Assembly: GCA_947630125.1 (NCBI GenBank)
Contig: CANRGO010000002.1
Location: forward strand, 6,829 to 70,828
DNA length: 64,000 nucleotides
Direction: 5' to 3'
Source: an uncultured Lachnospiraceae bacterium
Lineage (GTDB): Bacteria > Bacillota > Clostridia > Lachnospirales > Lachnospiraceae
Shown here: positions 3 to 63,066 of the stretch, one piece after another
How the letters are laid out: the number at the start of each line of letters is the position of its first letter
Numbering within the stretch: position 1 is the stretch's first letter
The notes under the pieces: generated by a model
The model's input: only the letters and a program-made list of their open reading frames with translations
What the model was told of the DNA's origin: nothing
The model's database searches: none
Translations under genes and position numbers: made by a program

Positions 3-707
3 GCACAGGAAGTTAAAACAAAACTCTTAACCAATTCAAACTTAGAGCTGGATTTTAAAGCAAAACTGGAAGCAATTGCGAAACAGCAAGAAGTAGTAGA
101 TAAGCTTATGAAAGATAATGTGGATGGACAGATAACAGCACCTGTTGCTGGAACGATTACCAGTGTGAACTTTGTGGCTGGACAGACAACAACACCAGAG
201 GCCGTAATGGCAGTTATTCAAATGTCTGATAAGGGATATACTCTGGAGTTCTCGGTAACCAATGAACAGGCAAAAAAAGTATCCATTGGTGATCCTGGCG
301 AGCTTGTAAATGCATGGTATTATTATGATTTAAAAGCAACACTTTCTGCAATTAAACCAGATCCAAATAACCCTGGTAAAAATAAAATTCTAAGCTTTGA
401 TGTTACTGGCGAAGTGACCGCGGGTCAATCCCTAACACTATCCGTCGGTGAAAAAAGTGCGAATTATGATTTGATTGTTCCGAATTCGGCAATCAGAGAA
501 GACAACAATGGAAAATTTGTTTTAATCGTGGAGTCAAAGAGTAGTCCTCTTGGTAATCGTTATGTGGCGACCAGAGTTGATGTGGAAGTATTGGCATCCG
601 ATGATACACAAACAGCAATTTCAGCGGCTCTATACGGTTATGAGTATGTAATTACCACTTCAACCAAGCCTGTAGAAGCGGGGAAATTGGTTCGACTGGC
701 TGAATAA
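3..707 (+). CDS. Efflux transporter periplasmic adaptor subunit (HlyD/MacA-like), C-terminal part; 5' end off-window
   Basis: Frame is open from base 3 (no stop upstream of the listed ATG at 108). Motifs APVAGTITSVNFVAGQ and IVPNSAIREDNNGKFVLIVE are typical of HlyD-family adaptors. Confidence 0.6.
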   Translation, partial: AQEVKTKLLTNSNLELDFKAKLEAIAKQQEVVDKLMKDNVDGQITAPVAGTITSVNFVAGQTTTPEAVMAVIQMSDKGYTLEFSVTNEQAKKVSIGDPGELVNAWYYYDLKATLSAIKPDPNNPGKNKILSFDVTGEVTAGQSLTLSVGEKSANYDLIVPNSAIREDNNGKFVLIVESKSSPLGNRYVATRVDVEVLASDDTQTAISAALYGYEYVITTSTKPVEAGKLVRLAE

Positions 708-56301: not shown

Positions 56302-58527
56302 ATGAATTCCAATCTAAAAAATCCGAAACTTAAAGAAATGCTGGAATTATTGGATAAAAATAGATATAGCAAAATGGAAGAAACCATAGAACTAGCGCAT
56401 GTGGTTTATGAAGAATGCAAAAAAGAAAATCATGAACCAGGGATGGCATTTGCCTTGCTGGCCATCGGTCAGGCTTTTGTAGATAGCAGTCATTATGAGG
56501 AAGCTTTAAATTATTTGTTTGATTGTATAAAACTTGCACAAAATCAAGATATCTGTGACTTGCAGATTCTGGCCTATATTAGCATTGGCAATATGTATTT
56601 TGATTTGGGAAACTATGAGAAAAGTCTGGAATACTATCAGGCAGGAGAACGTTTGATTCGGATTATGAATCACAGTAGAAATTATTATAAAAATGTTAAT
56701 CCTGATTTTTATACCACAAAGATTAAAAATAATCTAGGAGAAATTCATCGGCTGATTGGTAGCTATCACGAAGCTAAAGAATACTATGAAACTGCGATTC
56801 AGATGGAGAAGGATAGTAATTATGCAGCATCCTTTGGAACCACGCTTTCTAATCTTGGAAATGTGGAATATCACTTAGGAAACTACCAGAAAGCAATTGC
56901 TTATTTTAAAGAGGCTATTCACTGGCTCTTACATTATGATTATCAATTAGGTTTGATCGAATCCTATGGTATGCTTGCCCTTGTGTATGAGAAACTGGAA
57001 AAAAATAAAGAATGCACCAAGTATTTTAAATTGGCAATTGATTTATCCTCCAACATTGAATATGCTTACAGTAAAGTTGATATTCTAATTGACTATAGTC
57101 AGTATTTGGAGCGCTCTGGTTTGCGTGAACTTTCTTTAAAAAACCTTGAGGAAGCATATTCTATAAGTAGTGACAAGAAATTGTATGCAAAGTCCATGGA
57201 AATTTGTAAGAAAGTGGTTTTGCTTTTGGAAAAATCAGGAGATTTGGTAAAAAGCAATTATTATTATCGTTTATATTTTGAAAATGAGGCTTGCCTAGCA
57301 CCAATCAAACAAGAAAATAAAGCTAGAAATCTTAAAATGAAAATGGAACTTGATCATTTGGAAGATGAACACAAGAATATTGTAGAGCAAAGTGAAGTTT
57401 TTCGAAGACGAACAGAGGACTTAATTGAAATCATTAAAAATATTTCCATTATCAATGAATTGGGAGAAAAACTTTCTACAACACTGGAGCTAGAAAAAAT
57501 ATACGAGATGTTGTTTGATACCGTACAAGGGATTGTGTCTTTTAGTGCTTTTGCAGTAGGTTTATATAATCAGGATAGCAATTCGATTCAATACCATTTT
57601 GCAGTAGAAAATCAGAATAGAATTCCTATGTATCAGACTAATTTGGACAACGAATCATCACTTGCGGTAAAGTGTTTACAAAATAATCAGACATTGGTCA
57701 TCAATGATATGGGAAATGAGTATCTATATTATATAGAGGATGTTAACTATATTACGTCTAAAAAAGGAAACGAAGATTTGAAATCTGCGATATTTTGTCC
57801 TTTGATAATTGATCAGGTTATGATTGGGGTAATGACTGTTCAGGCTACCGAAAAAAATGCATTTACCACCTTGGTGGTGGAAATGATTAAAGCCTTATCC
57901 ACTTATGCAGCAATTGCAATTCATAATTCCATCAAATCAAAAAGTCTGGTGAATGAAATTAGTCAGAGAGTAAAATTTCAGGAACAATTAGAGGAAACAA
58001 ATCGAAAACTAATGTATTTGTCGGAAAATGATGGACTTACGAACATTCCAAACAGACGAAAATTAGATTATGTGATTAGTGAAACCTGGGAGACTTGTAA
58101 GAGTAAACAGGAAGTACTGTCTTTGATTATCTTTGATATTGATCATTTTAAACAATATAATGATAATTTTGGACATACAAAAGGGGATCAGTGTTTAATT
58201 GATGTTTGTGATTACCTGAAGGATAAAATCAATCAGAAGTATTTTGCAGCCCGATATGGAGGGGATGAATTTGTTGTCCTGTTACCGGAAACGTCCTTAG
58301 ATTTTGCAAAGGAATTTGCTGAAGAATTCCGAATAGGGATTGAAAAAATGGCATTTCCAAATCCCTACTCAAAAGTTAGCAATGTGGTAACCGTAACCCT
58401 AGGGGGTAGTAGTGTGAAACCAACTGATCAGTTTGAAATTATTGATTTGATTCGTCAGGCAGATATGAATCTTTATGCAGCAAAAGAAAATGGAAAAAAT
58501 CAAGTGGTAGGATCTGAGTTATCTTGA
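56302..58527 (+). CDS. TPR-GAF-GGDEF diguanylate cyclase
   Basis: N-terminal TPR repeats (..YEEALNYL.., ..YEKSLEYY.., ..YQKAIAYF..); GAF-like middle; intact RYGGDEFVVLL active site; no obvious RxxD I-site seen. Confidence 0.85.
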   Translation: MNSNLKNPKLKEMLELLDKNRYSKMEETIELAHVVYEECKKENHEPGMAFALLAIGQAFVDSSHYEEALNYLFDCIKLAQNQDICDLQILAYISIGNMYFDLGNYEKSLEYYQAGERLIRIMNHSRNYYKNVNPDFYTTKIKNNLGEIHRLIGSYHEAKEYYETAIQMEKDSNYAASFGTTLSNLGNVEYHLGNYQKAIAYFKEAIHWLLHYDYQLGLIESYGMLALVYEKLEKNKECTKYFKLAIDLSSNIEYAYSKVDILIDYSQYLERSGLRELSLKNLEEAYSISSDKKLYAKSMEICKKVVLLLEKSGDLVKSNYYYRLYFENEACLAPIKQENKARNLKMKMELDHLEDEHKNIVEQSEVFRRRTEDLIEIIKNISIINELGEKLSTTLELEKIYEMLFDTVQGIVSFSAFAVGLYNQDSNSIQYHFAVENQNRIPMYQTNLDNESSLAVKCLQNNQTLVINDMGNEYLYYIEDVNYITSKKGNEDLKSAIFCPLIIDQVMIGVMTVQATEKNAFTTLVVEMIKALSTYAAIAIHNSIKSKSLVNEISQRVKFQEQLEETNRKLMYLSENDGLTNIPNRRKLDYVISETWETCKSKQEVLSLIIFDIDHFKQYNDNFGHTKGDQCLIDVCDYLKDKINQKYFAARYGGDEFVVLLPETSLDFAKEFAEEFRIGIEKMAFPNPYSKVSNVVTVTLGGSSVKPTDQFEIIDLIRQADMNLYAAKENGKNQVVGSELS

Positions 58528-58778
58528 GTCTCTTCCGCTGTGGGTAGTTCATCTTCTGGCCAGACAGTAGCTAAAGTACGTTTATTGGCATAGACCCCAT
58601 AAAGCCAGATATAAACCCAAAGTAAAATGGGTAAAAATATCATAGCAAGAGCGCTTGCCATAAATAAGCGTTCTTTTCCTGGAAAATCAAGGATAGCAAT
58701 CACCAGTGTACTAATGGAAAGAAGAACTAATAAAACAATTGCAACAATGGCAAGGATGCGTTTTGTATTTTTTTTCAT
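58500..58778 (-). CDS. Hypothetical small membrane protein (two TM)
   Basis: MKKNTKRILAIVAIVLLVLLSISTLVIAIL.. and ..MIFLPILLWVYIWLYGVY. Convergent 28-nt overlap with the GGDEF gene. Confidence 0.5.
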   Translation of the reverse strand: MKKNTKRILAIVAIVLLVLLSISTLVIAILDFPGKERLFMASALAMIFLPILLWVYIWLYGVYANKRTLATVWPEDELPTAEETQDNSDPTT

Positions 58779-59463: not shown

Positions 59464-59484
59464 ATTAAAAAAGCCTTTACAGAT

Positions 59485-59513
59485 TTGATTTTTCGGCATA
59501 GAATACCTATATA
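59485..59513 (+). promoter_or_regulatory. Sigma-A promoter candidate for the T-box leader
   Basis: TTGATT-N17-TATATA. Confidence 0.45.
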
Positions 59514-59564: not shown

Positions 59565-59800
59565 ACGTTGATGAGACGAGTACAATATGGAAAGTAGCAG
59601 AGAGAGATACCCCTTGTTTTCTGGGTGCTGAAAGTATCTTTTCTGGAAATGTTGGAAAACTAACTCTGAGTGGTCCTAATCAGACCCGGTAATTCCGTTA
59701 TCATTGTTAAAGAGACTTTAAATAGTTATTTTTAAAGTAAGTAGGGTGGAACCGCGTGATGAACGTCCCTTGTGCTAGTATCTAGTGCAAGGGATTTTTT
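59565..59800 (+). promoter_or_regulatory. T-box riboswitch leader, probable Thr (ACU) specifier, with terminator
   Basis: GA/K-turn UUGAUGAG..AGUA; AGAGAG box; distal GGUGCUGAAAG; specifier region GGAAA-ACU-A. T-box core AGGGUGGAACCGCG. Terminator CCCTTGTGCTAG-TATC-TAGTGCAAGGG followed by T7. Confidence 0.85.
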
Positions 59801-59864
59801 TATTTCAAAGAATCCAGTCATTTAGCAAGAGGCAACTGTGCCGCAATGAGGAAAGGGAAGGTAA

Positions 59865-60188
59865 ATGAACATGAAACAATCCACAAAAGAAAATTTAAAC
59901 AAATTATTTGTAGGGGAAGTTACCCTGAAAAAAAGAGAACTTTGGTTAGTAGGAGCAGTATGTTTATTTTTTGGAATTATTTATGGTTTGAAAAAAGCTC
60001 CACTTACAAAAGGTGTAAATGTTACAGTAGGAAGTAATAATGGAAACCACAATAGTAATTGCAGTAATGAAGATGCAGATGATTGCGAATGTGTTGAAGT
60101 ATGTGAATGCGAAGATGACGATTGTTGTTGTGACGATGACTGTTGTTGTGAAGATGACGATTGCTGTAACGAAGAATGCAATTGTTAA
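59865..60188 (+). CDS. Hypothetical single-pass membrane protein with extreme Cys/Asp/Glu-rich C-terminal tail
   Basis: RBS GGGAAGG; TM LWLVGAVCLFFGIIYGL. The tail CSNEDADDCECVEVCECEDDDCCCDDDCCCEDDDCCNEECNC has 15 Cys and 20 D/E in 42 aa. Lies between the T-box terminator and thrS. Confidence 0.6.
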   Translation: MNMKQSTKENLNKLFVGEVTLKKRELWLVGAVCLFFGIIYGLKKAPLTKGVNVTVGSNNGNHNSNCSNEDADDCECVEVCECEDDDCCCDDDCCCEDDDCCNEECNC

Positions 60189-60224
60189 GTATTTATTTTT
60201 AAAGCAGGAAGGATTGGTAGTAAC

Positions 60225-62183
60225 ATGAAAATAACATTAAAAGATGGATCTCAAAAAGAGTATGCAGCAAGCATGTCAATCTATGACATTGCATTTGATA
60301 TTAGTGAAGGCTTGGCAAGAATGGCCTGTGCTGGTGAAGTAAATGGAAAAGTATGTGATTTGAGACAGGAAATCAGTGAAGATTGTGAGCTAAATATTTT
60401 AACAGCAAATGATGCAGAAGGACTTCAAGTGCTTCGCCATACAACCTCTCATGTTTTGGCAGAAGCTGTTAAAAGAGTATTTCCAGATGCTAAACTTGCG
60501 ATTGGACCAAGCATTGATACCGGATATTATTATGATTTCGAACATGCTCCTTTTACCAGAGAAGATTTGGATTTAATTGAAGCAGAAATGAAAAAAATCA
60601 TAAAAGAAGGAAATAAATTAGAACGTTTTACGCTTGCTAGAGAAGAAGCAGTGCGTTTTATGGAAGACAAACAGGAACCTTACAAAGTTGAGCTAATACG
60701 TGATCTCCCAGAAGATGCAGTGATTTCTTTTTATAGCCAAGGAGATTTTGTAGACTTATGTGCAGGACCTCACTTAATGAGTACCAAAAATATAAAAGCT
60801 TTCAAACTTATTTCTTCTTCAGGTGCTTATTGGAGAGGGAAATCTGAAAACACTATGCTACAAAGAATCTATGGAACTGCATTTAATAAGAAAGAAGAGC
60901 TTGCGGCATATCTGGAGCACTTAGAAGATATTAAAAAGCGTGACCATAATAAATTAGGTCGTGAAATGGAATTATTTACAACGGTGGATGTAATTGGACA
61001 AGGTCTTCCTCTTATGATGCCAAAAGGAACTAAAATGATTCAGACTCTTCAGCGTTGGATTGAAGATGAAGAAGAAAGACGTGGATATGTAAGAACAAAA
61101 ACTCCACTGATGGCGAAAAAAGATCTTTATGTAATTTCAGATCATTGGGCACATTATAAAGAAGGCATGTTTGTGCTGGGAGATGAAGAGAAGGAAGAAG
61201 AGGTATTTGCTCTTCGACCAATGACATGTCCATTCCAGTATTATGTTTATAAGAATAGCCAAAAATCCTATCGTGATTTACCTTTACGTTATGGTGAAAC
61301 ATCAACTCTTTTTAGAAATGAAGATTCAGGTGAAATGCATGGATTAACAAGAGTTCGTCAGTTTACTATTTCTGAAGGACACTTGATTGTAAGACCTGAT
61401 CAGGTGGAAGAAGAATTTAAAGGTTGTATTGATTTAGCGAAATACTGTCTCACAACTCTAGGACTTGCAGATGATGTGACCTATCGTTTATCAAAGTGGG
61501 ATCCTAATAACAAAGCAAAATATATGGGAAATGAAGAAACATGGAATTATGTACAGGATACCATGAGAGATATTTTAAATCACATTGGCATTAAATTTAC
61601 AGAGGCTGATGGAGAAGCTGCTTTTTATGGTCCAAAGTTAGATATTCAGGCTAAAAACGTATACGGTAAAGAAGATACCATGATAACCATTCAGTTGGAT
61701 ATGTTTATTGCTGAACGTTTTGATATGACTTACATTGATTCCAATGGTGAAAAAGTACGTCCCTATATCATCCACAGAACAAGTATGGGCTGTTATGAAA
61801 GAACACTTGCCTGGTTGATTGAAAAATATGCAGGTAAATTCCCAACATGGTTATGTCCAGAACAGGTTCGTGTACTTCCAATCTCTGAAAAGTATGCGGA
61901 GTATGCGAAAAAAGTAGAAGAAGTATTAAAAAGCAATGGTGTACTTGCAACACTTGACAATCGTTCTGAAAAAATTGGCTATAAGATTCGTGAAACAAGA
62001 CTTGCAAAAGTTCCATATATGCTGGTAGTTGGACAGAAGGAAGAAGAGGATGGACTGGTTAGTGTTCGTAGCAGATTCCTTGGAGATGAAGGACAAAAGC
62101 CATTAAGTCAGTTTATCGATGAGATTACAAAAGAAATCAGAACCAAAGAAATTCGTAAGGAAATGGTTGTGGAAGAGAACTAA
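60225..62183 (+). CDS. thrS: Threonine--tRNA ligase
   Basis: TGS domain, second additional domain (HTTSH..), class II core (..RPMTCP.., ..FRNE.SG..GL.RVR.F..), anticodon-binding domain. Confidence 0.95.
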   Translation: MKITLKDGSQKEYAASMSIYDIAFDISEGLARMACAGEVNGKVCDLRQEISEDCELNILTANDAEGLQVLRHTTSHVLAEAVKRVFPDAKLAIGPSIDTGYYYDFEHAPFTREDLDLIEAEMKKIIKEGNKLERFTLAREEAVRFMEDKQEPYKVELIRDLPEDAVISFYSQGDFVDLCAGPHLMSTKNIKAFKLISSSGAYWRGKSENTMLQRIYGTAFNKKEELAAYLEHLEDIKKRDHNKLGREMELFTTVDVIGQGLPLMMPKGTKMIQTLQRWIEDEEERRGYVRTKTPLMAKKDLYVISDHWAHYKEGMFVLGDEEKEEEVFALRPMTCPFQYYVYKNSQKSYRDLPLRYGETSTLFRNEDSGEMHGLTRVRQFTISEGHLIVRPDQVEEEFKGCIDLAKYCLTTLGLADDVTYRLSKWDPNNKAKYMGNEETWNYVQDTMRDILNHIGIKFTEADGEAAFYGPKLDIQAKNVYGKEDTMITIQLDMFIAERFDMTYIDSNGEKVRPYIIHRTSMGCYERTLAWLIEKYAGKFPTWLCPEQVRVLPISEKYAEYAKKVEEVLKSNGVLATLDNRSEKIGYKIRETRLAKVPYMLVVGQKEEEDGLVSVRSRFLGDEGQKPLSQFIDEITKEIRTKEIRKEMVVEEN

Positions 62184-62184
62184 T

Positions 62185-63066
62185 ATGACAGTAGAAAAAC
62201 GAAAAGTGTGGGCTCATATAGCGGGGATTCTAACTGCCGTTATATGGGGGACCACCTTTATATCGACAAAAGTACTTTTGGAAGATTTTGAACCAATTGC
62301 TGTTTTGATTTATCGATTTATCATTGCCTATGTTGCTTTAAGCATAATCAAGCCGAAGCCTTTAGCCTTTGAGAGTCTAAAAAAAGAGTTTTGGTATTTT
62401 TTGGCAGGTTTATTAGGGGTTACCATATATTTTCTATTTGAGAATATTGGATTAACCTACACCCTAGCGAGTAATGCAAGTGTAATTGTATCAACAGCCC
62501 CTTTATTTACAGCACTTTTGGTTTTTGTTTTCTTGAAAAATGAAAAGCCAAAAAAATATTTTTTCATTGGCTTTCTATTTGCTATGTCTGGAATTGCATT
62601 GATTAGTTTTCAGGGAACATCAACCCTGGAATTACATGTCATAGGTGATTTGTTAGCCTTAGGTGCCGCAATTGTTTGGGCTTTTTATTCCGTGATATTG
62701 AAGAAACACGTGGATATGAGCAAGCAGATGATAGAAATAACAAAGAGAATTATTTTTTATGGGATTCTAACGATGCTCCCATTTGGAGCAGTGTATGGAG
62801 CAAAACTAGATTTGAACAAACTGTTTTCAGGAGTAAACCTTGGAAACTTCTTGTATCTTGGAATAGGAGCTTCTGCGATTTGCTATGTAACCTGGAATTA
62901 TTCGCTGGAAGTTTTGGGAGCACTAAAAGCCAGTCTGTATATTTATCTGGTTCCAGTAATAGCAATTATTACTTCAGTTGTTGTTTTGGGAGAACCTTTT
63001 ACTTTAACAGTTGCAGCTGGAGTGGTGTTAACCTTAGCAGGACTTTTGATTTCTGAAAAGAAATAA
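62185..63066 (+). CDS. EamA/DMT-family transporter
   Basis: Start trimmed to MTVEKRKVWAHIAG.. 2 nt after the thrS stop; 10 TM; duplicated EamA pattern. Confidence 0.8.
   Translation: MTVEKRKVWAHIAGILTAVIWGTTFISTKVLLEDFEPIAVLIYRFIIAYVALSIIKPKPLAFESLKKEFWYFLAGLLGVTIYFLFENIGLTYTLASNASVIVSTAPLFTALLVFVFLKNEKPKKYFFIGFLFAMSGIALISFQGTSTLELHVIGDLLALGAAIVWAFYSVILKKHVDMSKQMIEITKRIIFYGILTMLPFGAVYGAKLDLNKLFSGVNLGNFLYLGIGASAICYVTWNYSLEVLGALKASLYIYLVPVIAIITSVVVLGEPFTLTVAAGVVLTLAGLLISEKK

Follow-up and report, generated by a model that had tools for sequence, protein, structure and literature searches.

A family of small, predicted membrane-anchored proteins with variable charged tails encoded in tRNA-charging operons of gut Clostridia

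A stretch of 64,000 nucleotides (nt) from an uncultured Lachnospiraceae bacterium (GCA_947630125.1, contig CANRGO010000002.1), referred to here in its whole length as the window, carries a small open reading frame (ORF) between a threonine T-box leader and thrS, the gene for threonyl-tRNA synthetase (ThrRS). The predicted product of this ORF, hereafter X (59865..60188; all features of the window lie on the forward strand unless stated otherwise), joins a single membrane segment to a C-terminal tail crowded with cysteine and acidic residues, and the question raised by the locus is whether such a protein is made at all and, if so, what it does in a synthetase operon. Comparison with relatives indicates that X is a real gene, that it belongs to a new protein family and that it is a member of the thrS operon, three conclusions that we hold, taken jointly, with high confidence. 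The function of the tail is treated below with correspondingly greater caution.

The assignment of X as a gene was based on the ORF list, its homologues and the substitution pattern of the coding frame. The ORF encodes 107 residues when read from the ATG at 59865 and 105 when read from the ATG at 59871, and a ribosome-binding site (GGGAAGG, 59855..59861), read directly from the sequence and in keeping with the plausible site mentioned in the initial annotation of this DNA, is located 3 nt before the first ATG and 9 nt before the second. Because the second ATG (MKQ...) has the better Shine-Dalgarno spacing (GGAAGG at 59856-61, 9 nt), and because a 98%-identical relative (P0001) is annotated with this start, the protein is probably 105 residues long. 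The exact 105-residue sequence had no identical entry in the protein collection searched, and the rest of the 64-kb window showed no paralogue of X. The coding test used as its reference L007, a relative whose thrS DNA is 86% identical to that of the window. In the head of the protein, 22 synonymous and 9 non-synonymous codon differences were counted in frame 0, while in the tail the ratio of synonymous to non-synonymous differences was 10:14 in frame 0 versus 2:26 and 9:18 in the other frames; frame 0 thus has the highest ratio in both head and tail, with third-position changes predominating. Every indel in the tail comprised whole codons, and seven Cys codons differed by TGT-TGC exchange only. 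A frameshift in close relatives, which the initial annotation had named as fatal to its proposal, was accordingly absent from L007, where X stays in frame. This pattern indicates that X is a genuine translated gene and that the pattern of its tail is not the product of chance. A structured RNA spanning the ORF region was also considered and rejected, as the predicted fold was not unusual (z = -0.6).

Relatives of X are numerous. A word-based search returned six, a profile search of 1.84 billion representatives returned 270 proteins at E<=1e-3 (clusters at 50% identity; the best 150 of the 270 span 57-159 residues), and a second profile search returned 371 clusters at 90% identity, so that the search for homologues suggested in the initial annotation ended in a whole family. 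The taxa are mostly Lachnospiraceae (Acetatifactor, Blautia) together with other Clostridia, and a cultured species, Acetatifactor muris, carries a copy (WP_146039971.1) annotated as 'hypothetical protein'. No Pfam domain was recorded among the 120 of the 371 clusters listed, and their names, where given, read only 'hypothetical protein'. Scanned singly, neither the window protein nor any of 80 members matched Pfam, NCBIfam or the PDB; weak hits to YtxH, LapA_dom, AmaP and Flu_M2, each from one of the 80 members, were treated as noise, and a Pfam scan of the window protein at E<=1 yielded Flu_M2 and FHIPEP noise only. Literature searches on small membrane proteins associated with thrS or T-boxes, on Cys-rich small proteins of Lachnospiraceae and on the motif GSNNGN returned nothing relevant, in agreement with the earlier statement that no characterised family is known to have this architecture. 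Sequence comparison places X in a family of small, membrane-anchored proteins that has not been described before and is present in hundreds of gut Clostridia.

The conserved part of the family is its N-terminal anchor module. A model of X was built with AlphaFold2 using an 80-sequence alignment, and this model predicts an N-terminal amphipathic helix (residues 3-14, 59871..59906) followed by a transmembrane (TM) helix (residues 23-44, 59931..59996) with a predicted local distance difference test (pLDDT) score of about 94, consistent with the one TM helix proposed at the outset. The TM helix contains a G-x3-G pattern whose two glycines, G37 and G41, do not vary within the family (alignment A2). 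Directly after the helix follows the juxtamembrane motif KK-AP-x-T-K/H-G-V...-V-GSNNGN (residues 45-61, 59997..60047; alignments A1 and A2), the family consensus of which is AP-x-THG-x-IGSNNGN; its residues P46, N59 and G60 show conservation of 90% or more in the family alignments. An Asn/Gly-rich spacer then precedes the tail. Against the family hidden Markov model (HMM), for which X itself was one of the source sequences, the window protein reaches 105.6 bits (E 3e-32), and it carries all four traits that define the new family, namely the N-terminal helix, the G-x3-G TM helix, the AP-x-T-x-G...GSNNGN motif and the disordered tail.

In the window, the tail comprises residues 66-107 (60060..60185, from the translation) and was modelled with low pLDDT. 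A recount of these last 42 residues gave the same 15 Cys and 20 Asp/Glu and the same C-terminus as in the initial annotation. The tail is devoid of Lys and Arg and of the aromatic residues F, W and Y, and Cys makes up about one third of it, in clusters of CEC, CCC and CC. Tandem Repeats Finder detected an 18-nt tandem repeat of 2.9 copies (60111..60167) encoding DDD-CCC units, and alignment showed that the number of units differs in a second close relative (P0002). P0001 and P0002 both retain the tail, with synonymous exchanges among its Cys codons, a pattern indicative of selection maintaining the Cys-rich tail inside the window's own lineage.

Outside this lineage the tail is highly variable. 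Among 299 unique members, in which the tail was bounded by HMM alignment, its length has a median of 27 residues (range 10-68) and its composition averages E 17%, N 15%, G 11%, D 10.5%, K 7.6% and C 6.2%. Most tails are acidic (247/299, 83%), while 47/299 (16%) have a net basic charge, and the basic tails often contain Cys as well (for example KCCKRQKKCRKGK). Cys is missing altogether from 122/299 tails (41%) and reaches four or more in 52/299 (17%), the latter falling into 17/58 clusters at 60% head identity and being scattered over the family; the maximum of 15 is found in the window protein, P0001 and L008. Repeats of acidic residues and Cys also occur in members P0148 and P0013 (CECDCDCDCECDCEC or CDCNCGEDCDCDC). 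Heads that are 78-82% identical can be paired with Cys-free, purely acidic tails, and the next relatives of the window protein after P0002 have 1-2 Cys in the tail. Because the nearest relatives have few Cys and the 18-nt repeat partly builds the array, the 15-Cys tail is read here as a lineage-specific, repeat-driven extreme of a labile tail. Across the family, the tail is hypervariable, fast-evolving and usually just acidic, and is predicted to be disordered. Since many members have no Cys in the tail, the conserved function must sit in the anchor and motif, in a generic charged tail, or in both.

The operon in which X is found was delineated next to this coding evidence. A promoter-like site (TTTACA-17-TAGAAT, 59476..59504), which agrees with 10/12 consensus positions and was assigned by consensus match only, lies 5' of the T-box leader RNA (RF00230, 59559..59773), which matches the full-length model with 87.8 bits and an E-value of 1.5e-19. 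The Rfam consensus alignment places the specifier ACU (Thr) at 59659-59661, in a loop reading GAA-A-ACU-A, and the T-box sequence GGGTGGAACCGCG is located at about 59744-59756; the threonine T-box proposed in the initial annotation is thereby supported. A default Rfam scan in which no T-box appeared in the window was judged a false negative (87.8 bits in the local scan against a gathering score of 93). An intrinsic terminator with a 14-bp stem (59765..59795) followed by a T-run was found by terminator scan (59765..59805), overlapping the 3' end of the T-box model. X begins about 64-70 nt 3' of the T-run, in accordance with the 65 nt given earlier, and 36 nt rather than the earlier 37 nt separate its stop codon from the start of thrS (60225..62183; NCBIfam TIGR00418, E 2.5e-184), the second cistron. 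The terminator scan predicted no terminator between X and thrS. With a cognate Thr specifier, a terminator, a gene on the same strand and no intervening terminator, the locus has the make-up of a T-box-regulated unit and is predicted to be one. A gene for an EamA-family transporter of the drug/metabolite transporter (DMT) type (62185..63066; Pfam EamA, E 1.8e-46), whose most likely ATG is 2 nt beyond the stop codon of thrS, is probably the third cistron. The predicted order of the operon is thus T-box, X, thrS and, in this genome, EamA, with X as the first cistron, and X would be made along with ThrRS when tRNA-Thr is uncharged. The threonine/homoserine carrier RhtA is an EamA-family protein, and by analogy the transporter of the window may carry Thr; a gene of this kind after thrS is not conserved in the other loci.

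This arrangement is shared by relatives. In 33/35 loci first analysed, thrS (recognised from the ThrRS start MKITLKDGS...) follows X within -4 to +202 nt, and the order T-box, X, thrS is kept in about 30/38 analysed loci, with ACU/ACC specifier candidates in most. In the loci analysed, the T-box signature is always 5' of X and never between X and thrS. Rfam scans placed a T-box 5' of X in eight relatives, namely L013 (103 bits) and, at 63-87 bits, L001, L010, L017, L025, L040, L044 and L046. Both the linkage check suggested in the initial annotation and its prediction that X shares a transcription unit with thrS are thus borne out, the latter as a prediction. The thrS T-boxes of this clade, that of the window included, score 63-88 bits, with L013 alone passing the Rfam gathering score of 93, and because of these low scores default Rfam annotation overlooks them. 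Upstream of the adjacent X and thrS genes of L031 and L039 no T-box was detectable at E<=0.001; in L039 the two genes are 202 nt apart. A second context was found in six loci (L037, L038, L048-L051), in which a sub-branch with heads of the type ...VNQRELVLG...SPKKNVTIGSNNGN is encoded between relA/spoT and dtd, the gene for D-aminoacyl-tRNA deacylase (L037 3486-3695; L038 3456-3713), with gaps of 10-13 nt and 3 nt, and has Cys-free tails. In L037 and L038, genes for a metallo-beta-lactamase (MBL)-fold hydrolase and a radical S-adenosylmethionine (radical-SAM) protein follow relA/spoT, X and dtd. Both operon contexts are tied to tRNA charging status. Canonical T-box operons of aminoacyl-tRNA synthetases have a threonine T-box and terminator before thrS, as here; for a conserved protein-coding cistron between the T-box and the synthetase gene, no description was found in the searchable literature.

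The topology of X was assessed from its flanking charges. Over the 299 members, the 10 residues after the TM helix contain on average 1.7 Lys or Arg and 0.02 Asp or Glu, the flank on the N-terminal side has a net charge of zero, and the tail of the A. muris member has a charge of about +11. Because the residues after the TM helix are basic and strongly basic tails could not cross the membrane, the tail is probably cytoplasmic (N-out, C-in). The anchor module would then probably dock X in the membrane, possibly on a partner via the G-x3-G face, and the tail would perform the variable work. In the lineage of the window, tandem duplication of the 18-nt unit would have generated an (Asp/Glu)n-(Cys)n array, and this array may act, tethered to the membrane, as a high-capacity thiolate/carboxylate chelator of soft metal ions (Zn, Cu(I), Cd or Fe, for example) or as a thiol buffer for them. 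Such a role appears the most likely one for the array because its composition matches those of metallothioneins and (Glu-Cys)n peptides and because it would operate in the reducing cytoplasm of an anaerobe. The passage of PMC4292183 that cites Bae et al. (2000) describes alpha-linked, ribosomally made (Glu-Cys)n peptides with 8-20 Cys that are anchored to cells and bind Cd. By this analogy, metal chelation by the particular tail of the window is put forward tentatively, at somewhat under an even chance, whereas the explanation as a whole, that of an anchored protein with a cytoplasmic polyanionic tail that here serves as a chelator, is the best available and is given an even chance.

Several observations weigh against this explanation. 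No match to a metallothionein HMM was obtained in the Pfam scans of X and of 80 members, and the metallothioneins known to us are soluble and not this acidic. With 41% of the 299 tails and the entire relA-dtd branch free of Cys, thiolate chelation cannot be the conserved function; the metal binding supposed in the initial annotation therefore fits this tail, whose composition is metallothionein-like, and falls short as a function of the family, in which the Cys-rich tail is not conserved. At a net charge of about -20, a tail might also be exported instead. No mechanistic explanation was found for the tie to tRNA-charging operons, and no conserved membrane partner is encoded nearby, EamA being confined to this species and its place being taken elsewhere by a protein of 530 residues or by DUF1540.

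Comparison with known systems places X closest, by analogy, to a membrane-anchored, very acidic metallothionein or phytochelatin analogue. Like metallothioneins, including the bacterial SmtA/BmtA type, the tail of X is short, dense in Cys in CxC, CC and CCC arrangements, free of aromatic residues and disordered without metal. However, X matches none of the Pfam Metallothio families (bacterial PF02069 included) and is TM-anchored rather than soluble, its tail is extremely acidic, and the Cys content is not conserved within its own family; literature searches for membrane-anchored bacterial metallothioneins found nothing relevant. The acidic-Cys repeats of phytochelatins and synthetic phytochelatins ((Glu-Cys)n-Gly, EC8-EC20) resemble the CECVEVCECE of X. 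Natural phytochelatins are gamma-linked products of an enzyme, and the EC peptides were obtained by engineering, whereas the tail of X is natural, alpha-linked, encoded by a gene under codon-level selection, built partly of DDD/CCC blocks and fused to a membrane anchor. AcrZ, MgtS and KdpF are small bacterial membrane proteins of the single-pass type that exert their effect via a partner. X resembles them in size, in its single TM helix, in a packing face of small residues and in its predicted co-transcription with a larger gene, but has no homology to them, has no conserved membrane partner nearby and carries a long disordered charged tail. Proteins of the YtxH-like family (PF12732) begin, as those of the X family do, with a Gly-rich hydrophobic helix and then an 'AP' turn. 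A single member of the 80 hit this model weakly, at an E-value of 0.014 that falls short of every curated cut-off; the other 79, the window protein included, gave no hit, and the helical C-terminal domain of YtxH is missing from X.

The alternative that survives best, though we consider it rather unlikely, is that charge and disorder do the work of the tail, through divalent-cation binding of low affinity, nucleic-acid mimicry or docking on the basic, RNA-contacting surfaces of ThrRS, Rel, Dtd or ribosomes, or tuning of the local charge at the membrane surface, the Cys of the window lineage being incidental or just a redox buffer. Acidity is the commonest trait of the tails (247/299) whereas Cys is absent from 41% of them, close relatives alternate between Cys-rich and Cys-free acidic tails, and both conserved contexts encode tRNA-binding enzymes. 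However, the 16% of tails that are net basic do not fit such a role, nor does the retention of Cys through synonymous changes in the lineage of the window. The Cys share of 6.2% in these tails is several-fold higher than would be expected of typical bacterial proteins, and the recurrence of CxC, CC and CCC clusters in many branches suggests selection for thiols.

An improbable but broader proposal is that the family is a membrane-tethered component, not recognised before, of the response to uncharged or mischarged tRNA, induced by the T-box or made with Rel and Dtd. At the membrane, its cytoplasmic, charged or thiol-rich tail would serve to recruit, buffer or protect the enzymes of tRNA charging, for example by supplying Zn to ThrRS or by shielding the oxidation-sensitive editing site of that enzyme in strict anaerobes, and would evolve rapidly in step with the metal or redox niche of each lineage. 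Narrower is the suggestion, also made in the initial annotation, that X is a dedicated zinc chaperone or buffer for the zinc enzyme ThrRS, co-induced with it. X and thrS are under one threonine T-box in a conserved arrangement, the tail is metallothionein-like in composition and probably cytoplasmic like ThrRS, and the genes nearby frequently code for proteins that are Cys-rich or of zinc type (SEC-C, C_GCAxxG_C_C, DUF1540). However, the tails of most thrS-linked members contain little or no Cys, a whole branch is located at relA-dtd and not at thrS, and to our knowledge ThrRS needs no zinc-accessory factor in most bacteria. Because that sub-branch is unlinked to thrS and Cys is not conserved, such a role cannot explain the conserved gene and is not supported family-wide; it is possible at best as a lineage-specific addition, and as an account of X it is very unlikely.

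Slightly less probable again is a precursor, in which the N-terminal 60 residues would be a leader or signal anchor and the tail a released or modified peptide, akin to a pheromone or a ribosomally synthesised and post-translationally modified peptide (RiPP), cleaved near GSNNGN. Precursors of RiPPs and pheromones typically pair a conserved leader with a hypervariable core, cores rich in Cys and Asp are substrates of radical-SAM thioether enzymes in ranthipeptides, and the conserved motif of X lies right at the junction of head and tail. However, no maturase, protease or exporter is conserved beside X in any context, the radical-SAM gene of the relA-dtd loci is three genes away from X and the tails there are Cys-free, and NCBIfam gave no hit to SCIFF or other precursor families. 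The basic residues right after the hydrophobic segment disfavour a cleaved Sec signal. A RiPP precursor of the SCIFF/ranthipeptide kind was rejected for want of a conserved maturase nearby.

That the frame is untranslated, or matters only for thrS expression through coupling, mRNA protection or a Thr-sensing leader peptide, finds some favour in its position in the thrS leader region and in an overlapping ORF that ends at the thrS start (60040..60228, 62 residues, containing Thr, Val and Ile), but is made extremely improbable by the amino-acid conservation of the anchor over hundreds of clusters, by purifying selection in frame 0, by the occurrence of the gene away from thrS and by the start of X after the terminator and not across it. 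Attenuation leader peptides are further unlike X in that it has 105-107 residues, only 4 Thr codons and a start more than 60 nt past the terminator. The overlapping ORF was itself rejected as a leader peptide on account of its stop codons in L007 and its worse substitution pattern, and appears to be a by-product of the GAY/TGY codons.

The surroundings of X contain further genes. The upstream neighbour in the window, in a separate transcription unit, encodes a SEC-C-motif protein (PRK05590, 58960..59463; Pfam SEC-C, NCBIfam NF004088, E 7e-68), and a SEC-C neighbour is also found upstream in L001-L008 and L042-L047. In divergent members the recurrent order is SEC-C, sometimes C_GCAxxG_C_C, the leader with X and thrS, and sometimes DUF1540; all three accompanying proteins are small and Cys-rich or of metal type, a resemblance that may reflect a common theme or mere chance. 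In several relatives, L001 (5862-7457) and L046 (5244 onwards) among them, the gene that follows thrS by about 10-20 nt encodes a protein of about 530 residues with no Pfam hit. L011 and L012 are identical X-thrS loci on two contigs of one Lachnospiraceae metagenome-assembled genome, through either assembly or true duplication. In L001, a sub-threshold match to the flavin mononucleotide (FMN) riboswitch (101-197, forward strand), scoring 39.8 bits where the gathering score is 66.2, is located 5' of a Macro-domain gene. On the reverse strand of the window, an ORF of 92 residues (58500-58778), for which two hydrophobic segments are predicted and whose C-terminus is acidic, overlaps a GGDEF/GAF/TPR gene (56302-58527) at the 3' end of the latter. 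This short ORF had no significant Pfam match, and it is probably a real gene because genes are also called at the matching position in L008 (92 residues) and L007 (98 residues).

What began as a single odd ORF is thus resolved into a defined and widespread family of small proteins of gut Clostridia that has no name in the databases. Its design of an anchor plus a variable tail, together with two operon homes that report on tRNA charging, makes it a concrete, testable target for work on small proteins and on aminoacyl-tRNA synthetases, and Acetatifactor muris offers a cultured carrier. Among its tails are (Asp/Glu-Cys)n arrays that are encoded in natural genes and look much like engineered metal-binding peptides. 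Should the tails prove to bind metals or compounds reactive with thiols, amino-acid starvation signalling would be linked to the handling of metals and redox in these anaerobes, and a functional link to tRNA charging, if true, would make the family a categorically new component.

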